Shown here one piece after another: positions 3,366 to 61,802 of a DNA stretch of 64,000 bases. The notes beneath the pieces were generated by a model. It had not been told where the DNA came from and made no database searches. It worked only from the letters and a program-made list of their open reading frames with translations. How positions within the stretch are numbered: the stretch's first letter is position 1; every line of letters starts with the position of its first letter. The stretch spans positions 1-64,000 of IMG/VR virus record IMGVR_UViG_3300037761_000271; one strand, written 5' to 3'. The DNA comes from a virus (taxonomy: Duplodnaviria; Caudoviricetes). The position numbers were made by a program, and so were the translations under genes.

Positions 3366-4565
3366 GTGGCGTACATGACCCTGCCCGGGACCCGGGCCGA
3401 GGTGCGGGTGTGGACCGACCCGTGGACGATCGAGCCGCAGGCCCAGCAGCAGCTGCGAAACATCGGCAACCTTCCGTGGGTGGACGGTGTGGCGGTGATG
3501 CCCGACGTGCACTACGGCAAGGGCGCCACCGTCGGGTCCGTGATCGCGATGCGGCAGGCGTTGGCCCCGGCCGCGGTCGGAGTGGATGTTGGGTGTGGGA
3601 TGTCGGCTGTGCGTACCAACCTGGTCGAGGCGGACCTGCCTGACGACCTGGCCCGGCTGCGGTCGACGATCGAGGCCCGGATCCCGGTCGGGTTCTCCTC
3701 CCATGACAGCCCGGTCGACCCGCAGCGGATGCCTGGGCTGACCCAGCGTGGCTGGGACGGGTTTTGGTCCAGGTTTGGGCAGCTTCACCCTGGCGTGGGG
3801 AAGCTGGCCGGCCGCGCGGCATGTCAGATGGGCACGCTGGGTGGTGGCAACCACTTCATCGAGGTGTGCATCGAGCAGGGCGGGCCCGGCGCCGGCCGGG
3901 TGTGGCTGATGCTGCACTCCGGCTCCCGGAACATCGGCAAGGAGCTGGCCGAGCGGCACATCGCAATCGCCCGGAAGCTGCCGCACAACCAGGACCTGCC
4001 TGACCGGGACCTGGCCGTGTTCGTGGCCGGCACCCCGGAGATGGACGCCTACCGGTCGGACCTGGGCTGGGCGCAGGAGTACGCCGCCCGGAACCGGCAG
4101 GTCATGCTCGCGCTGCTGTGCGGTGTCCTCGCCCAGGCTGTGCCGCAGGTCCGCTATGACGAGCCGATCTCCGCCCACCACAACTACGTGGCGGAGGAGA
4201 CCTACGGCGGGGTGGAGCTGCTGGTGACCCGCAAGGGGGCGATCCGGGCCGGGGCGGGGGAGTTGGGGATCATCCCCGGCAGCATGGGCACCGGCTCATA
4301 CATTGTGCGCGGCCTGGGCAACGAGGCGGCGTACTGCTCGGCGTCGCATGGTGCCGGCCGGCGGATGTCCCGCGGCCAGGCCAAGCGGACCTTCACCGTG
4401 AAGGATCTGGCCGAGCAGACCGCGGGGGTGGAGTGCCGCAAGGACTCTGGGGTGGTCGACGAGATCCCCGGAGCGTACAAGGACTTGGGTCAGGTGATCG
4501 CCGAGCAGCGGGATCTGGTGGAGGTGGCACACCACCTCCGGCAGGTGGTGTGCGTCAAGGGCTGA
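3366..4565 (+). CDS. rtcB: RtcB-family RNA 3'-phosphate ligase
   Basis: MPDVH, VGVDVGCGM, GGGNHFIE, HSGSR, HHNY, RKGA, PGSMG, SHGAGR and DEIPGAYK motifs. Confidence 0.97.
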   Translation: MAYMTLPGTRAEVRVWTDPWTIEPQAQQQLRNIGNLPWVDGVAVMPDVHYGKGATVGSVIAMRQALAPAAVGVDVGCGMSAVRTNLVEADLPDDLARLRSTIEARIPVGFSSHDSPVDPQRMPGLTQRGWDGFWSRFGQLHPGVGKLAGRAACQMGTLGGGNHFIEVCIEQGGPGAGRVWLMLHSGSRNIGKELAERHIAIARKLPHNQDLPDRDLAVFVAGTPEMDAYRSDLGWAQEYAARNRQVMLALLCGVLAQAVPQVRYDEPISAHHNYVAEETYGGVELLVTRKGAIRAGAGELGIIPGSMGTGSYIVRGLGNEAAYCSASHGAGRRMSRGQAKRTFTVKDLAEQTAGVECRKDSGVVDEIPGAYKDLGQVIAEQRDLVEVAHHLRQVVCVKG

Positions 4566-54616: not shown

Positions 54617-54943
54617 ATGTTTCGGAGCGGGGAGGTCCGGCTCGTGGCAGCTCGAACAAGGCGGCTCCGTGCGGTAGGGCCAGGTGAGTCCGCGCAGGGA
54701 AGGAAGCCACCGCGTGTGACGGTAGCGGCCCAGAGCGGCAGCCACAGGGATCTGCTGGTCGCTCTGCGGTCCAGGATTGCCCAGGCAGTCGAGGACCCGA
54801 ACACGCCACCCCGGGATCTGGCGTCACTGTCGCGGCGGCTGCTGGAGATCGCTAAGGAGATCGAGGCGATCGATGCCGACGACCAGGGGGACGAAGTTGG
54901 TGCGGCAGCCGCGACGCCGGACGAACCGTGGGCTGCTACCTGA
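54617..54943 (+). CDS. terS: Terminase small subunit (start uncertain)
   Basis: DLLVALRSRIAQAV...PRDLASLSRRLLEI; position. Confidence 0.7.
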   Translation: MFRSGEVRLVAARTRRLRAVGPGESAQGRKPPRVTVAAQSGSHRDLLVALRSRIAQAVEDPNTPPRDLASLSRRLLEIAKEIEAIDADDQGDEVGAAAATPDEPWAAT

Positions 54944-56387
54944 GGCCCGTCACCTGATCTTGCCGAAGGGGATCCGGTCGTCCGGGTTCCCTTCGGTGCG
55001 GGAGACGTGCCGACGTGTCGGTATCGAGTTCGACCGGTGGCAGCAGGATCTGAACAGGTGCCTGCTGGCCAAGGACGCGGCCGGGTTGTACGCGGCCGAC
55101 ACCGCGGTGCTGTCGATCGCGCGCCAGGTGGGTAAGACCTTCGACGTGGGTGCGGTGGCGTTCGCGTTGTGTATCGCCACGCCGGGTCTGACGGTGGTGT
55201 GGACGGCGCACCGGTTCAAGGTGTCGCGCGAGTCATTCAACGAGATGCGGGCATGGGCGAAACGGCGCCAGCTCGCCGCGCACATCGACTACGACGAGAT
55301 CACCACTGGGGCGGGGAACGAGCAGATCCCGTTCCGCAATGATGCCCGGATCGTGTTCGCGGCCCGGGAGCGTGGGGCGATCCGCGGGTTCACCAAGGTC
55401 GGGGTGCTGGTGCTGGACGAGGCGCAGATCCTGACCGAGGCGGCGCTGTCGGACCTGGTGCCGACGACCAACCAGGCGCCGAACCCGCTGGTGATCCTGA
55501 TGGGCACACCGCCGAAGCCGACCGACCCGAGTGAGGTTTTTGTCCGGCTGCGGCAGGAGGCGCTGGACGGCGAGTCGGATGATGTGCTGTACGTCGAGCT
55601 GTCCGCCGACGCGAACGCCGACCCGAACGACCGTAGGCAGTGGCGCAAGGCGAACCTGTCGTACCCGGCCCGCACGTCGGAGCGGGCGATCCTGCGGCTG
55701 AAGAAGCTGCTGTCGGCCGAGGATTTCCTGCGGGAGGGGCTGGGGGTCTGGCCGGAGGGCGGCCTACCGAAGTGGCAGGTAATCAGCGAGGCGGCGTGGC
55801 TGGCCCGGCAGAAGACCACCCGCGCGCAGCTTCGGCTGGTCGACCCGGTGACGCTGGGGGTGGATGTCACCCCGGACCGGACCTGGTCGGCGGTCGCCGC
55901 CGCCGGTGACCGGGTCGGTGGCGGCCGGGCGGTGGAGGTCACCGCCGACCCGCAGGCGGCCGAGCTGCGGGACCGGGTGGACTACCGGCCGGGCACCGGC
56001 TGGGTGATACCCCGGCTGAAGACGCTGGTGGAACGCAACCGGCCGTGTGTGATCGTGATATCGGACCGGGCGCTGTTCGAGGAGGCCGAGGCGGCTGGGC
56101 TGCCGGCCTACCGGGCCAGCACCGGCGACCTGGCGTCGGCGGCGGCGAAGCTGTACGACGGGATCGCCGGCACCACCCCGGACGTGTGGCACTCACCCGA
56201 CCCGGACCTGGCCGATGCGGCGGCGGGGGCGACGAAGCGTCCGCTCGGCGATGGGTGGGCGTGGGACCGCCGCTCGGTCAGCGTCAACATCTGCACCCTG
56301 GTCGCCACCAGCCTGGCGTTGTGGGGGGCGGCAACACCTCGCATCCACGTTGCCCGGTTGACCCCGTTCGCCCTCGTCGGCAGCTAG
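54897..56387 (+). CDS. terL: Terminase large subunit
   Basis: ARQVGKT; WTAHR; RGF...LDEAQ; GTPP; LGVDV nuclease motif. Confidence 0.93.
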   Translation: MVRQPRRRTNRGLLPEARHLILPKGIRSSGFPSVRETCRRVGIEFDRWQQDLNRCLLAKDAAGLYAADTAVLSIARQVGKTFDVGAVAFALCIATPGLTVVWTAHRFKVSRESFNEMRAWAKRRQLAAHIDYDEITTGAGNEQIPFRNDARIVFAARERGAIRGFTKVGVLVLDEAQILTEAALSDLVPTTNQAPNPLVILMGTPPKPTDPSEVFVRLRQEALDGESDDVLYVELSADANADPNDRRQWRKANLSYPARTSERAILRLKKLLSAEDFLREGLGVWPEGGLPKWQVISEAAWLARQKTTRAQLRLVDPVTLGVDVTPDRTWSAVAAAGDRVGGGRAVEVTADPQAAELRDRVDYRPGTGWVIPRLKTLVERNRPCVIVISDRALFEEAEAAGLPAYRASTGDLASAAAKLYDGIAGTTPDVWHSPDPDLADAAAGATKRPLGDGWAWDRRSVSVNICTLVATSLALWGAATPRIHVARLTPFALVGS

Positions 56388-56390
56388 ATA

Positions 56391-56485
56391 CCCTCGCCTT
56401 GCCCCGCCTGGCCAAGCCAGGCCCGGCCTTGCCGCACCTAGCCATGCCCGGACTCGCCGTACCCAGCCGTGCCCCGCCAGGCCAC
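56391..56485 (-). ncRNA. GGY-NN pentamer array A (18 units), putative guide RNA
   Basis: Plus-strand units gcctt gcccc gcctg gccaa ... gccac in exact 5-nt register; 2 GGT and 1 GTC variants. Confidence 0.85.
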
Positions 56486-56486
56486 G

Positions 56487-57026
56487 CTAACTTTCTCCTC
56501 GCTCCAGCCGCTCCAGCCGAGCCTTGAGTTCCGCGATCTCCTCCTCGGACCGCTCGTGACGCTGGTCCATCGACGACAGGGACTCCTCCAGCCGTTTCTG
56601 TCGGATGTCCATCCGCCGGTTGAAGTCCATCTGTGCGGCGAATGCCCGCGCAACCAGCTCGAATGCCTGCCGGGTGTCCGGGTCCATGCCCGAGAAGTCG
56701 ACGTGGACCACCTTCGAATGACCGGAGCGTAGCGCCCGGTTCGACTTCCGCTGCTGCTGGCGGGCAAGCTGCATGTGCTCGGGTGGCCTCACCACCCGAT
56801 AGCCCTGGTTGGGGACCGCCTCGACCGCCCGCTTGTCGATCAGCTCATGTTCGCGGGCGGCCCGCCGCATCGCCATCTGTAGCTGGTGCCGGTCCCGGAC
56901 AGGATGCAGGCCGAGGGCGTCACCCATCTGCTGGTAGGTGAGGGTGTGGGCGGTCTCGGTGGCCCGGAGCAGGTCGTAGACGATCCGCCACCGGGGTTGC
57001 TCGCCGAGTGGCTGGAATGGTGCCAT
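56487..57026 (-). CDS. Accessory protein of the cassette, possible wHTH plus coiled coil
   Basis: ATG overlaps the upstream TGA; TLTYQQMGDALG...PNQGYRVV. Confidence 0.8.
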   Translation of the reverse strand: MAPFQPLGEQPRWRIVYDLLRATETAHTLTYQQMGDALGLHPVRDRHQLQMAMRRAAREHELIDKRAVEAVPNQGYRVVRPPEHMQLARQQQRKSNRALRSGHSKVVHVDFSGMDPDTRQAFELVARAFAAQMDFNRRMDIRQKRLEESLSSMDQRHERSEEEIAELKARLERLERGES

Positions 57027-57598
57027 CACGCGGTCTCGACCTTGGCGATGAACCGGCCGTAACGGGGGCGCCAGTCGCCCAGCCCGATCAGTTGTCCGGC
57101 GGTTTCGGCGATCGCCTCGACCTCGGCCAGGTCGATGACGTTGGTATCGATGTAGCCGAGGGCATCGGTGCGCCACTCGCGGAACATGGGCCGGCAGCGC
57201 ATGACCCGCTGCTGCCCGACCTTGGCGGACGCCAGCAGTCGGAAGTTCTCATCGGCCCACAGTCCGGCCGCGTCGCGTGGCCCGCGGTAGGCGAGCGGGT
57301 TCAGGTCGGACTTGATGAACACGCCTTCCTTGACCTTCGGCCCGCGCTTGGACTTCTTCGCCGCGTCGTAAAGGGCGCGCCAGATGTTCTCACCGGGGAT
57401 GAATGGGCCGATCTCCGAGTCGATGTAGAGCGACCCGGCGTGCTCCAGCCGGGCGATCTGTTCGTGGTCATCGTCGGTCTTGTTGCGCTTCCCGGTGATC
57501 CGCTTCATGGCCTTTGCGGCTGGGTCGAGCGGGTTGGACAGCCTGCCGCTGTGCATGAGCAGGCTGGTTGTGCCTTCGATGGTGATGCGGAAGTCCAT
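57026..57598 (-). CDS. RAMP/Cas7-like protein (Vipr-like effector)
   Basis: ITIEGTTSLLMH strand; PFIPGENIWRAL resembles the RAMP P.IPGS.KG motif; Gly-rich GLGDWRPRYGRF loop; GAGGAG RBS. Confidence 0.8.
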   Translation of the reverse strand: MDFRITIEGTTSLLMHSGRLSNPLDPAAKAMKRITGKRNKTDDDHEQIARLEHAGSLYIDSEIGPFIPGENIWRALYDAAKKSKRGPKVKEGVFIKSDLNPLAYRGPRDAAGLWADENFRLLASAKVGQQRVMRCRPMFREWRTDALGYIDTNVIDLAEVEAIAETAGQLIGLGDWRPRYGRFIAKVETA

Positions 57599-57624
57599 TT
57601 CCCCGTGCTCCTCGTGTTGGTAGT

Positions 57625-57699
57625 TCCCTGCCGCGCCCAGCCGTGCCTCGCCGAGCCCAACCTAGCCAGGCCGCGCCGGGCCCGGCCCCGCCCCGCCTT
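57625..57699 (-). ncRNA. GGY-NN pentamer array B (14 units), putative guide RNA
   Basis: Exact 5-nt register from 57630 to 57699. Confidence 0.85.
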
Positions 57700-57702
57700 G
57701 CG

Positions 57703-57744
57703 TGCGGTGGTCGGGAGTCGAACCCGACTGATGACCATCACCGC
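57703..57744 (-). ncRNA. tRNA-like acceptor/T-arm minihelix between arrays
   Basis: GCGGTG-atggtcatca-GTCGGG-TTCGACT-CCCGAC-CACCGC-A. Confidence 0.75.
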
Positions 57745-57746
57745 GC

Positions 57747-57816
57747 CCCATGCCCCGCCTCGACAAGCCGTGCCAAACCAAGACTCGCCACGCCCAGCCT
57801 CGCCTGGCCAAGCCGT
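57747..57816 (-). ncRNA. GGY-NN pentamer array C (13-14 units), putative guide RNA
   Basis: Exact 5-nt register from 57752 to 57816. Confidence 0.85.
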
Positions 57817-57819
57817 GCA

Positions 57820-57870
57820 CCCGCAATATACCACGCTTTACGGGATACATACCACGTCTATACCGTGATA
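57820..57870 (-). promoter_or_regulatory. Cassette promoter with repeated operator-like boxes
   Basis: Extended -10 TGgTATATT (minus strand, 57825-57833); ATACCACG at 57828 and 57849; ATACCGTG at 57860. Confidence 0.6.
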
Positions 57871-57883
57871 GAGGGGATGCTGT

Positions 57884-59272
57884 GTGAGCTGGTGGCGGAG
57901 GCTGCTGGGGCTCCAGCGGGCCACCAGCACCGAGTTGCAGAAACGGTCGGCCCTGTCCTGGCAGGATTATGTTGATCTTTTCAGTTTTGGTGGCTCCAGC
58001 TATCCGCTGCTGAACACCACCATGGCCTCGATGAACGAGGAGGCCATCGGGTCGACCCTGTCGCAGGTGGCCAAGTCCAACGGGCCGGTATTCGCGCTGC
58101 TGCTCGCCCGGCTACAGGTGTTCTCCCAGGCCCGGTTCCAGTGGACCCGCTTCGACCGGGGGGCGCCCGCCGACCTGTTCGGCACGGACGAGCTGGCTGT
58201 GCTGGAGCGGCCGTGGCCGGGTGGAACCACCGCGGACCTGCTCGCCCGGATGGAGATCCAGGTCACCACTGCCGGGAACGCCTATGTGCGCCGGGTCGGC
58301 CGGGGCGAGAAGTCCCGGCTGATCTGCCTGCGGCCGGAGTGGATGTACATCGTCCTCGGGTCGCAGACCGACGCCGACCACCCGGCCGAAGCCGCCGACG
58401 TGGAGCTGCTCGGCTACGTCTACAAGCCACCCAACGCGAAGATGGTCACGTTCCTGCCCGAGGAGATCGCTCACTACGCGCCGATCCCGGACCCGGACGC
58501 CACCTACCTGGGCATGTCCTGGATCACCGCCGCCCTGCGGGACATCTCCGGCGACAACCTGATGACCGACCACAAGCGCGCCTTCCTCCGCAACGCGGCC
58601 ACCCCCAACATGGTGATCAAGTTCGACCCCAGCATCACGCTTGCGGCGGTCAAGGAGTTCAAAGAGGTCTTCGAGGCCGAGCACCAGGGCGCGCTGAACG
58701 CATACAAGACGGTGTACCTGGGCGGCGGCGCCGACGCGACCGTGGTCGGCAAAGACTTCCAGCAGTTGGAGTTCGCGGTCACCCAGGGCAAGGCCGAGTC
58801 GCGGCTGGCATCCTGCGCCGGGGTCCCCCCGTCCTGGGTCGGATTCTCCGAAGGGCTCCAGGGTTCGTCGCTCAACGCGGGCAACTTCACCGCCGCCAGG
58901 CGCCGCTTCGGCGACGGAACCATGCAGCACATGTGGATGAACGTCGCCGCCAGCCTGGAGATCCTGGTCCGCCGACCCAGCGTCGGCGTGTACCTGTGGT
59001 TCGCCACGAAGGGCATCCCGTTCCTGCACATGGACGCGAAGGACGCGGCCGAGGTGCAGGCCACCGAGGCGCAGACCATCACCGCGCTGGTGCGGGACGG
59101 GTTCACCGCCCAGTCGGCGATCCTCGCGGTCCAGAACCACGACTGGTCCCGCCTGGTGCACACCGGGAGGGTTTCTGTCCAGCTCCAGACCCCCGGTGAG
59201 GCGGACGCGGCGCAGGTCAACGGCAACGGCGCCCGGCGCGGAGAGCTGATCGTCGGTGCCCTGCGGCCATGA
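57884..59272 (+). CDS. Portal protein
   Basis: Position after terL; TTAGNAYV; LRPEWM; F..NAATPN; GVPP. Confidence 0.9.
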   Translation: MSWWRRLLGLQRATSTELQKRSALSWQDYVDLFSFGGSSYPLLNTTMASMNEEAIGSTLSQVAKSNGPVFALLLARLQVFSQARFQWTRFDRGAPADLFGTDELAVLERPWPGGTTADLLARMEIQVTTAGNAYVRRVGRGEKSRLICLRPEWMYIVLGSQTDADHPAEAADVELLGYVYKPPNAKMVTFLPEEIAHYAPIPDPDATYLGMSWITAALRDISGDNLMTDHKRAFLRNAATPNMVIKFDPSITLAAVKEFKEVFEAEHQGALNAYKTVYLGGGADATVVGKDFQQLEFAVTQGKAESRLASCAGVPPSWVGFSEGLQGSSLNAGNFTAARRRFGDGTMQHMWMNVAASLEILVRRPSVGVYLWFATKGIPFLHMDAKDAAEVQATEAQTITALVRDGFTAQSAILAVQNHDWSRLVHTGRVSVQLQTPGEADAAQVNGNGARRGELIVGALRP

Positions 59273-59294
59273 CAACTCCAGGACGGAGACGGAT

Positions 59295-61802
59295 GTGACC
59301 ACCACAACGGTGACCGGTGTGGACCTGCGGTCCGCGCTGCGGCTGTGCTACCGGTCGGTGGAGTTCCGCGCCACCGGGCCGGTCGGCGACGGGCGCACCC
59401 TGGAAGGCTACGCCGCGGTCTTCGACACCCCCACGATCATCGAGTCGTTCGCCGGGGACTTCGAGGAGGTTGTCAAGCGGGGCGCGTTCCGCAAGACGCT
59501 GCGGGACCGCATGCCGGTGATGCAGTTCGACCACGGCAACGACAAGCGCACCGGCAGTGTGCCGATCGCCTCGATCGAGGATCTGCGGGAGGACGACGAA
59601 GGTCTGTTCGTCAACGCGCGGCTGTTCGCCAACGACGTGGTGGAACCGATCCGGCAGGCAGTCGCAGGCAAAGCCATCCGCGGCATGTCGTTCAAGTTCC
59701 GGGTGATCCGGGACCAGTGGGTCGACCGTGACGGGAAGAAGATCCCCGCCGACGACCTGGCCGGCCTGCTTGAGAACCCGGGCGACCGCGGGCCGATCCG
59801 CCGGGAGATCCAAGAGGTCGAACTGTTCGAACTGGGCCCGGTGGTGTTCCCGGCCTACACGCAGACCAGTGTCGGCGTACGTGGCTCCCGGTTCGACTCT
59901 AACGCCGTGGCGGTGCGGGGTGTGCTGGGCCAGTTCGGGCTGGATGAGCGTTGCGTGCAGCGGCACCTGGCCGGGTTCGACCCGCAGGAGCGGCAGGTCC
60001 TCGCCGAAGAGGTGGTGGCCGCGTTCCCGGAGCTGGCCGACCTGCTGACCGCGCGGGCCACCCCACCGGCCGACCCGGCGCCGGCTGCCGAGCCCGAGCC
60101 TGAGCCGACCCCACCCGCACCAGTACCCACCCCGCCCCCGGCGCCTTCCCCGGCCCCGCCGGGCGGTGCCCAGAGCTCCCCGCAGCCGGCCGCGGCCACT
60201 GCGGGACCCACCACCACCGAGCCGGCCCCCAGCCACTCGGCGTCCAAGCCGGAGCCGCGTAAGCACTCCAAGGCACCCAAGCCGCCGGTAGCCAGCCGTG
60301 CGGCGACCAAGCCAGCCACAACTAGCCAGAGGAGTGACAACGTGCAGCCCACGATGACCGTGGACGAACGGCGGGAGCGGCAGGAGGAGATCCGCGCCCG
60401 CCTCACCGAGATCGACAACGAGTACATGGGTGCCGCCCTGCCGGATGAGACCCGGGAGGAGTGGGGCCGGCTGTCCGAGGAGCACCAGACCCACCAGGTG
60501 GCCATCGACGACGCGGAGCGGCGCCGGGTCAACCTGGAGAGCCTGTTCGCCCAGGGCCGCGGCGTGGAGGGTGGCGCCGGGATCACCACGGTGACCACCC
60601 CGGGTCTGCTGGCCAAGCGCACCGACTCGGACCTGTACGACCTGCGGGAGATCCGCCGGTCGGCATCCTCGGAGGATGACCTGCGCCGGCTGTACCGGGA
60701 GCGGGCCTACGAGGCGGTGGAGCGGGCCAAGTTCCCCGGGCAGAAGAACAAGGAGCGGGCGCAGGCCCGGGCGCTGGAGCTGCTGGACACGGTCGACGAC
60801 GAGTCGGCGACCCTGGCCCGGCGGATGCTGGCCACCGGATCCCCGCTGTACGACCGCGCGTTCGGTAAGGCGGTGCTGGCCCGGTCCACCTCCGGGCTGA
60901 CCGCGGAGGAGGCCCGGGCGCTGTCCGTGGGCTCCGACTCCGACGGCGGGTTCGCCGTCCCGTTCCAGCTCGACCCGACGATCATCCTCACGTCGGACGG
61001 GTCCAGCAACCCGCTGCGGCAGATCAGCCGGGTGGAGACGATCGTCGGCAAGGAATGGCAGGGTGTCACCTCCGCCGGGATCACGGTCACCCGCACCCCG
61101 GAGGTGCAGGAGGCCACCGACGACGCGCCCGAGGTGGACCAGCCGGTCGTTCGGCCCAGCGCGGTGCACGCGTTCGTTCCGTTCTCCATGGACGTGGAGC
61201 AGGACTGGACGCGGCTGCGGGCCGAGATGACCCGGCTGCTGAACAACGCCAAGGACGACGAAGAGGCCGAGTCGTTCGTCAACGGCGACGGGTCCCTGAT
61301 CAGTGGCGGCGGGCACACCCCGGACGGCATCGCCGCCGGGCTGGCCGCGGCCAGCGAGGTACCCGGCGGCGCGTCGTTCACCTCCCAGGACCTGTACGAC
61401 CTGGAGGCCGGCGACAACGGGCTGGGTGAGCGGTTCCTCGCCCGGGCCGTCTGGCTGGCCAACCGCAGCATCTACAACCTGGTGCGGCAGTTCGACACCT
61501 CCGGTGGTGCCGACCTGTGGGTGCGGCTCGGCGCGGGTCAGCCACCTGAGCTGATCGGCTACTCGGCCTTCCGCGCCTCGGCGATGCCGTCCAGCCCCAC
61601 CGGCCGGTACCTGATCCTGGGCGACTTCAACGAGTTCCTGGTTGTGGACCGTGTCGGCATGTCGGTCGAGCTTGTGCCTCATTTGTTCGGTGCGGCCCGG
61701 CGGTTCCCGACCGGGCAGCGGGGCATCTACGCCCGGTGGCGGAACACCACCAAGATCCTGGTGGACAACGCGTTCCGAGTCCTGACGGACGACGAGTCCT
61801 GA
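59295..61802 (+). CDS. HK97-type prohead protease-major capsid fusion
   Basis: LEGYAAVF..GAF..FDHG..ED..GL protease domain; Pro-rich linker; GGFAVPFQLD capsid domain; internal RBS+GTG at 60342. Confidence 0.9.
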   Translation: MTTTTVTGVDLRSALRLCYRSVEFRATGPVGDGRTLEGYAAVFDTPTIIESFAGDFEEVVKRGAFRKTLRDRMPVMQFDHGNDKRTGSVPIASIEDLREDDEGLFVNARLFANDVVEPIRQAVAGKAIRGMSFKFRVIRDQWVDRDGKKIPADDLAGLLENPGDRGPIRREIQEVELFELGPVVFPAYTQTSVGVRGSRFDSNAVAVRGVLGQFGLDERCVQRHLAGFDPQERQVLAEEVVAAFPELADLLTARATPPADPAPAAEPEPEPTPPAPVPTPPPAPSPAPPGGAQSSPQPAAATAGPTTTEPAPSHSASKPEPRKHSKAPKPPVASRAATKPATTSQRSDNVQPTMTVDERRERQEEIRARLTEIDNEYMGAALPDETREEWGRLSEEHQTHQVAIDDAERRRVNLESLFAQGRGVEGGAGITTVTTPGLLAKRTDSDLYDLREIRRSASSEDDLRRLYRERAYEAVERAKFPGQKNKERAQARALELLDTVDDESATLARRMLATGSPLYDRAFGKAVLARSTSGLTAEEARALSVGSDSDGGFAVPFQLDPTIILTSDGSSNPLRQISRVETIVGKEWQGVTSAGITVTRTPEVQEATDDAPEVDQPVVRPSAVHAFVPFSMDVEQDWTRLRAEMTRLLNNAKDDEEAESFVNGDGSLISGGGHTPDGIAAGLAAASEVPGGASFTSQDLYDLEAGDNGLGERFLARAVWLANRSIYNLVRQFDTSGGADLWVRLGAGQPPELIGYSAFRASAMPSSPTGRYLILGDFNEFLVVDRVGMSVELVPHLFGAARRFPTGQRGIYARWRNTTKILVDNAFRVLTDDES

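Follow-up and report, generated by a model that had tools for sequence, protein, structure and literature searches.

Systems called VIPR (for Viral Interference Programmable Repeat), reported in 2026 in three bioRxiv preprints (10.64898/2026.04.26.720920, 10.64898/2026.04.26.720927 and 2026.10.15.759431), are RNA-guided DNA-silencing systems of phages that are related to CRISPR. Each is built from a minimal, single-RRM RAMP protein (Vipr), the product of an accessory gene (vap) and guide RNAs (vrRNAs) composed of typically 9-16 (at least 4) YNNGG repeats followed by a structured 3' tail. According to these preprints, one Vipr protomer occupies each repeat and hides the GGY, while the NN pairs with double-stranded DNA, one target base being skipped per unit, and transcription is silenced; natural systems have no self-targets, and the vap gene of type II VIPR encodes a DNA-binding protein, not a nuclease. 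The type II system of Escherichia phage SUSP1 (vipr, vap1 and four vrRNAs; PDB 36pp) targets in codon register and matches itself less well than its competitor, and all of its vrRNAs carry the tail, a pseudoknot that is resolved at the filament end and is needed for complex formation. VIPR is only months old and has been characterized almost entirely in two proteobacterial systems. The subject of this report is a locus of an uncultured, high-GC actinobacterial phage from sediment (IMG/VR record IMGVR_UViG_3300037761_000271), whose genome is a single viral contig of 86,485 bp, of which the first 64 kb form the stretch analysed here (the window). A cassette of ~1.45 kb within it, lying antisense in the intergenic region between the large terminase gene (terL) and the portal gene, is very probably a genuine VIPR cassette of type II-like character. 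The locus leaves the picture of what VIPR is unchanged but extends the machinery to a high-GC actinobacterial phage.

Membership of VIPR is concluded from the homology of the cassette protein to SUSP1 Vipr, its RAMP fold, its conserved contact residues, a partner gene of phrog_5926 and the GGY/NN arrays. Read along the minus strand, 57870..56388 begins with an AT-rich promoter-like stretch before the first pentamer run and continues with array C, a tRNA-like minihelix, array B, an open reading frame (ORF) of 190 aa, an ORF of 179 aa and array A. This is the order given by the first-pass annotation, which was made from the sequence alone; its boundaries also stand, apart from 56388, which immediately follows the stop codon of terL, array A ending at 56392. 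The parts are as follows:

57825..57833, minus strand: predicted promoter of the extended -10 type, TGG-TATATT, situated 7-8 nt upstream of array C.

57748..57817, minus strand: vrRNA array C, 14 YNNGG units, 12 of them perfect and two imperfect units ending in GT; NN string AC TT CA GA TG GT GA TT TT AC TT GA GG AT.

57704..57744, minus strand: tRNA-like minihelix of 41 nt, between arrays C and B.

57626..57700, minus strand: vrRNA array B, 15 YNNGG units, all 15 perfect; NN string AA GG GG CG CC GC CT TA TG TC GA AC TG GC AG.

57026..57598, minus strand: vipr, encoding a 190-aa minimal RAMP protein; ribosome-binding site GAGGAG at 57613..57608.

56487..57026, minus strand: vap (vap1-like), encoding 179 aa; ATGA stop/start overlap with vipr.

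56392..56486, minus strand: vrRNA array A, 19 YNNGG units, 18 of them perfect, beginning one base past the vap stop codon; NN string GT CT GG AC TG AC GA CG AT TA GC AA CG CT TT CA GG AA GA.

By homology and by structural model, the 190-aa protein is Vipr with a RAMP fold. Residues 4-187 match PDB 36pp_D, 'SUSP1 Vipr protein' (E 9.8e-31; 33% identical), the protein belongs to phrog_4652 (E 9e-55) together with SUSP1 Vipr, and a 50%-identity protein library contains 2,475 cluster representatives that match it at E 0.001 or better. An AlphaFold2 model made from 57 homologues has a pLDDT of 97.3, and Csm3/Cas7 backbone subunits make up all the top Foldseek matches to this model (E 4e-6, probability 1.0, TM 0.45-0.55). 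Both the SUSP1 match and this structural comparison with Cas7 support the earlier description of the protein as RAMP/Cas7-like. In SUSP1, G1, G2, Y3 and the skipped base are reported to be held by H17, K33, E71, R138, D177, W178 and R179 (10.64898/2026.04.26.720927), and the window protein has the identical residue at each of these seven positions (H16, K32, E70, R136, D175, W176 and R177, respectively), with R136 and R177 invariant across the 57 homologues. Searches of Pfam, including its RAMP models, and of PADLOC gave no match to Vipr.

The second gene, vap, is translationally coupled to vipr through the stop/start overlap. Its product falls in phrog_5926 (E 6e-8), where SUSP1 Vap1 scores E 1e-75. 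In an AlphaFold2 model (pLDDT 79) a helix-strand-helix-helix-wing topology is followed by a 60-residue helix (116-175) that forms a coiled coil, and Foldseek returned only weak matches, none at E 0.001 or better, all of which are winged-helix DNA-binding proteins, so that the N-terminal domain is modelled as winged-helix-like. Pfam yielded only noise and PADLOC no match for Vap, and its sequence matches in PDB, which are designed TPR or coiled-coil proteins, were likewise taken as noise. The cassette holds no nuclease; the silencing without a nuclease that had been proposed for it fits type II VIPR, where vap encodes a DNA-binding protein.

Tandem YNNGG runs of at least six units occur exactly three times in the 86,485-bp genome when both strands are scanned, all at this locus and all on the minus strand, which upholds the earlier reading of three GGY-NN arrays with a strict 5-nt period. 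Tandem Repeats Finder reported them solely under the periods 15 and 25, both multiples of 5. Arrays C and B lie within the published typical range of 9-16 units, and array A, with 19, lies above it. As a side observation, the last units of array A (56392-56418) and the first units of array C (57788-57814) are 85% identical over 27 nt and have the NN units TT CA G(G/A) in common, through partial duplication or by chance.

Relatives of the cassette were taken from IMG/VR loci whose Viprs are 61-92% identical to that of the window, and further relatives, with Viprs of 44-71% identity, come from Planomonospora venezuelensis, Mycobacterium sp. E1747, a Streptantibioticus metagenome-assembled genome (MAG) and an Oscillochloris MAG; individual fetched loci are denoted by L numbers. 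All fetched vipr loci carry YNNGG arrays with wholly different NN strings: no NN string of the window arrays recurs in the loci of 61-92% identity, and the GGY is kept. The arrays lie on the vipr strand in every fetched locus except L005, where two YNNGG arrays (16 and 11 units) upstream of vipr, each followed by a hairpin tail, are on the strand opposite to it (3564-3743, minus strand of that locus). The densest guide set belongs to the Streptantibioticus MAG contig (L020:751-3007), which has at least nine arrays and six minihelices, with several arrays placed between vipr and vap.

The cassette resembles SUSP1 VIPR in that both proteins are homologous and phage-borne, vipr is followed by vap, GGY/NN arrays lie up- and downstream on the same strand and a nuclease is absent. 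It differs in its high-GC actinobacterial host, in its position inside the structural module, in array length (14, 15 and 19 units versus 7-16 for SUSP1 in the present scan) and in the long extra coiled coil of its Vap. It shares with the Cas7 subunits of Class 1 CRISPR (Csm3/Cmr4) an RRM-based RAMP fold with G-loop and thumb, one subunit per guide repeat unit and periodic base flipping, whereas a CRISPR array, other cas genes and an adaptation module are missing at this locus, and the period of VIPR is 5 nt of guide to 3 nt of target, as opposed to 6 and 6 for Cas7. The earlier statements that the locus is not CRISPR and has no other cas genes are likewise correct: no CRISPR-type repeat-spacer array was found in 55500-59000, where the sole direct-repeat family consists of the pentamer arrays matching one another, neither Vipr nor Vap has a cas match in PADLOC or Pfam, and the neighbouring genes are terL and portal. 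Membership of CRISPR-Cas was rejected, there being no 25-40 nt repeats with spacers and no further cas genes.

The first-pass annotation had named VIPR as the fitting system and had proposed a filament with gapped target pairing; the system is indeed described, its defining protein and array features are present at the locus, and the proposed filament corresponds to the published mechanism of one protomer per repeat with a one-base skip. The novelty that it had assumed is not sustained, VIPR having already been published in 2026. Two points temper the assignment: the probable type II affiliation is drawn from the homology of vipr and vap to the reference pair of that type and not from the phylogeny of the original authors, and transcription, processing and RNA binding of the arrays are predicted by homology to the described systems.

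The element between arrays C and B is a covarying mimic of a tRNA acceptor stem plus T-arm that is found only between arrays. Together with the match of guide C to the portal gene and the patch of T-ending codons at the phage's own site, both described below, it goes beyond the main texts of the VIPR papers, and no mention of a tRNA in connection with VIPR was found in the VIPR literature. In the window it is parsed as GCGGTG, the linker ATGGTCATCA (10 nt), GTCGGG, a TTCGACT loop, CCCGAC, CACCGC and ACG, giving a 6-bp acceptor-like stem (GCGGTG/CACCGC) and a 6-bp T-stem. The same design occurs between arrays in L002, L003, L004, L009, L010, L011 and L020. Across this family an acceptor-like stem of 4-7 bp is followed by a linker of 9-11 nt with a conserved GG, a T-stem of 5-7 bp with a TTCRANY loop, a directly stacked 3' strand, a purine and then CG(C), and the two stems total 11-12 bp. 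A covariance model built on 15 instances recovered a sixteenth, on which it had not been trained, at L004:3843-3893; the 16 instances are spread over eight loci and always lie between arrays, with one in the window. In the model-fitted alignment, which leans towards its own model, 89% of cells are paired versus 63% in shuffles (0 of 500 as high), 10 of the 11 pairs change on both sides and the covariation score is 0.67, versus 0.19 in shuffles and 0.09-0.19 for slid partners. RNAalifold, applied to a separate MAFFT alignment, found the T-stem with five of its six pairs covarying.

A tRNA gene was considered and rejected, the element having only an acceptor-like stem and a T-arm and no full cloverleaf with anticodon arm; ARAGORN and Rfam are negative at 57704-57744, and relaxing Rfam to E values of up to 10 gave only a chance microRNA match. 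Rfam found no hammerhead either. ARAGORN called five tRNA genes of the phage at 1911-3254 on the plus strand (Val, His, Tyr, Arg and Cys), and the T-arm half of the covariance model gave weak matches at the T-arm of the tRNA-Cys and at a T-arm-like site beside the tRNA-His gene; the latter, at 2023-2042, lies between tRNA-Val and tRNA-His, where no tRNA was called.

The favoured role of the minihelix is punctuation, that is, cleavage by host tRNA-processing enzymes, possibly combined with capping. In tRNA-punctuated processing, as in mitochondrial transcripts, herpesvirus tRNA-miRNA units and engineered tRNA-gRNA arrays, a tRNA-shaped element lying among functional RNAs brings in RNase P and RNase Z for cleavage of the polycistronic precursor. 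The window element differs from these in being only the top half of a tRNA, with the 9-11 nt linker replacing the D and anticodon arms, and its cleavage is proposed by analogy. VIPR arrays of types I and V that are interspersed with hammerheads (fig. S19 of 10.64898/2026.04.26.720920) likewise place a structured RNA between guides, presumably for vrRNA release, but the module there is a self-cleaving ribozyme and not a tRNA mimic that relies on host enzymes.

The strongest competing explanation, less probable but deserving real weight, is that the minihelix is the structural 3' tail of vrRNA C and hence the counterpart of the SUSP1 pseudoknot, which would nucleate or cap the filament and stay on the guide, the tRNA likeness reflecting an incidental use of a T-loop. 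The minihelix directly abuts the last repeat, as does the SUSP1 tail, its 5' part holds the GGATGGT that is common to SUSP1 tails (GTGGATGGTAGTAGCCAC...), and the SUSP1 tail is required for complex formation and is resolved at the filament end. Only this opening GGATGGT is common to the two, however, since the window element is an acceptor/T-arm minihelix present on one of three guides and the SUSP1 tail is an H-type pseudoknot. In this clade the minihelix never follows the array that abuts vipr, nor the last array of the operon, so that filaments must be able to form without it; a punctuation signal would be expected to sit exclusively between guides, as this element does, and stacked stems of 11-12 bp followed by a purine form the geometry that is read by tRNA-processing enzymes. 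The two roles are compatible with each other, and punctuation remains the preferred reading. Two results sit less well with a structured, generally used element: single-sequence folding of the window minihelix gives a non-significant z-score of -1.5 and prefers another inner pairing, and the tails of arrays B and A have no significant structure by folding and no minihelix by the covariance model. Other short conserved sequences follow arrays as well. In the more distant L005-L008, a second class of tail replaces the minihelix with a GC hairpin (GGGCC...GGCCC) followed by a conserved YTTCGCCATG. After the vipr-abutting array and just before the ribosome-binding site, the short motif ACTAYCNAYCAC is conserved in the window (57599-57625, minus strand), L001-L003 and L011, and may represent either a tail in minimal form or a segment of the 5' untranslated region of vipr.

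The flanking genes of the cassette confirm the position that had been assigned to it, antisense between terL and portal:

54777..56387, plus strand: large terminase gene (phrog_9, E 2e-43), which converges on the cassette; 4 nt separate its stop codon from where array A ends.

57884..59272, plus strand: portal gene (PF04860, E 4.8e-31), divergent from the cassette promoter.

In L001-L011 and L020 the vipr-vap pair is kept, and none of these loci has terL or portal within 4 kb. Conversely, in seven of seven loci with a homologous portal, terL lies directly upstream and the cassette is absent; in the nearest portal relatives (L012, L013 and L019) ~70-210 nt separate terL from portal, compared with 1,496 nt here, and the portal-proximal flank of the cassette, ~57841-57880, is recognisable in L013. 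Since vipr loci lack the terL/portal setting and the portal relatives lack the cassette, it is concluded that the cassette is a mobile insertion of ~1.45 kb. A variant of the junction exists in another sample, as a 315-nt contig of a second sediment metagenome (run X2) spans array C and the portal start (window 57748-58048) with 13 differences. Joints between arrays were also seen in contigs of three sediment runs, but with short sides (21-32 nt) and 85% likeness they are probably derived from the repeats and were not used.

Targets were scored by the published one-base-skip rule, under which a GGYNN guide unit reads NNx in the target, on both strands and against unit-order shuffles; the published cut-off for natural targets, which lie in competing mobile elements, is an 80% NN match. 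Guide C matches 23 of 28 positions (82%), in codon register, at codons 24-37 of the portal in L012, L013 and L019, whose portal genes show 89-96% identity to that of the window, and 0 of 400 unit-order shuffles reach 23 over the same 132 kb (maximum 21). The best match of guide C across the fetched loci is always the homologous portal site. Guide C spells T-[FL]-Q-[DE]-[WC]-V-[DE]-[FL]-[FL]-T-[FL]-[DE]-G-[IM]; the translated site reads PFQDWVDLFSFGGT in the relatives and SWQDYVDLFSFGGS in the portal of the carrier. Within its own genome, guide C has its best match, 20 of 28 (71%; shuffle maximum 19), at 57956..57996 on the plus strand, codons 25-38 of the own portal, again in codon register with the skipped base on the wobble position. 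No guide has a self-target at 80% or above anywhere in the genome.

The portal of the carrier has diverged from those of its relatives most densely around this site. Compared with L012 it has 73 nucleotide differences over 1,389 nt, 33 of which fall in the first 113 nt and 14 in the 41-nt site. T-ending codons account for 20 of the 462 codons of the own portal (4.3%), and 8 of the 20 lie in codons 28-36 (57965-57991; P about 1e-10). Guide C does not read wobble positions, yet it is these that have been recoded in the own portal. The 23 of 28 match in the relatives and the diverged own site with its patch of T-ending codons suggest that guide C is most likely aimed at the portal of sibling phages without the cassette, the allele of the carrier having diverged. 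The predicted target is thus a sibling portal, where that of SUSP1 is a satellite. L012, which bears the target site, and L001, which encodes a Vipr 92% identical to that of the window, both come from metagenome 3300037499, so that target-bearing and VIPR-bearing phages co-occur in one sample.

A second explanation for the portal match is self-regulation, whereby weak, tunable binding at the 5' end of the own portal would time or damp the late operon, in lysogeny or early infection. The best own-genome match of guide C is indeed the own portal, in codon register and above the shuffle maximum, the site is only ~140 nt behind the cassette promoter, and the odd patch of wobble codons ending in T shows that this site is under some special constraint. 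Nevertheless, self-regulation is improbable: 71% is below the level of natural targets and published systems have no self-targets, relatives without the cassette match better (23 versus 20), the reverse of what it predicts, and the absence of the cassette from all seven sampled phages of the portal family argues that it is not fixed in late-gene control.

Targeting of sibling portals has its own weaknesses, which lie in the strength of the match, in the sampling behind it and in the other guides. At 82% the match is borderline, just above the published cut-off, and of the five mismatches three fall within the guide's 3' third, the part at which R-loops begin to form in SUSP1. The contigs L012, L013 and L019 are kin to each other and count as one observation. 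A perfect target of guide C was found neither in IMG/VR, searched for the exact full NNx pattern, nor in JGI metagenome contigs, searched with a relaxed pattern, and guides A and B have no target above background in the own genome or the fetched loci. In IMG/VR no exact match was obtained for either half of guide A or for either 10-unit half of guide B, the 3' half of guide B gave none in JGI metagenome contigs, and guide B with up to three mismatches found no target in 404 Actinomycetes genomes, including three that carry relatives of the cassette. Several other candidates were set aside. The best own-genome match of guide A, 22 of 38 in the protease-capsid gene at 59487, recurs in relatives but is background (shuffle mean 22); guide B read as the motif GRPxxYCSxxC corresponds to no gene of the genome or the fetched loci; and cross-matches of 20 of 24 from the guides of relatives are at chance level for the space searched, none of these guides targeting the window genome.

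A further reading, in which the pentamer arrays are no guides but low-complexity sequence that is translated, simple repeats rich in G, or a degenerate remnant beside an unrelated gene, is barely credible: minus-strand ORFs of 109 and 62 codons do traverse arrays C and B, but units of 5 nt in which three positions are fixed and two vary freely cannot be reconciled with codon constraint, in keeping with the earlier claim that the arrays are not coding, unit counts vary freely among related loci, the arrays are found only beside vipr, and the Vipr protein is intact with its GGY-binding residues kept.

Taken together with the published mechanism, these features suggest how the cassette would operate as a weapon against closely related competitors. 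The extended -10 promoter would drive a single minus-strand transcript comprising array C, the minihelix, array B, vipr, vap and array A. The minihelix, as a stack of 11-12 bp, would separate guides C and B, most likely through RNase P or RNase Z, and may in addition cap the 3' end of guide C in the manner of the SUSP1 pseudoknot. By homology to the SUSP1 filament, one Vipr protomer would then bind each YNNGG unit, with H16, R136, D175, W176 and R177 sequestering the GGY and leaving the NN exposed. The resulting filaments of 14, 15 and 19 subunits would read double-stranded DNA as NNx, one base being skipped per unit, and block transcription with the assistance of Vap. Guide C would be directed at the 5' end of the sibling portal (codons 24-37) with the skipped base on the wobble position, the allele of the carrier staying below 80%.

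A broader proposal that combines these elements is tentative and, as a whole, rather doubtful. It holds that arrays of actinobacterial phages are punctuated by mimics of the tRNA top half, maturation by RNase P/RNase Z being a third architecture beside tail-capped and ribozyme-spaced guides, and that the carrier shields its own portal through an allele recoded mainly at the skipped wobble positions. If this were true, the skipped base or local properties of the duplex would aid discrimination of self from non-self, contrary to the view that only the NN matters. The locus offers three testable extensions of VIPR: a guide maturation that may borrow host tRNA-processing enzymes, a natural guide against an essential structural gene of siblings rather than a satellite or prophage regulator, and a self-allele whose wobble recoding coincides exactly with the footprint of the guide and could bring to light constraints acting on the skipped base.

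The predicted promoter corresponds to TGGTATATTGC, a string kept immediately 5' of the first array both in the window and in L001, L002 and L003. It is read as a putative extended -10 promoter that would place the transcription start at the first repeat; a generic promoter and terminator scan found no sigma-70 -35/-10 pair and nothing on the minus strand. Downstream of the portal gene, an 848-aa ORF (59256-61802, plus strand) matches both phrog_80 (head-maturation protease domain, residues 32-212) and phrog_10 (major head protein) and, by these matches, looks like a protease-capsid fusion.

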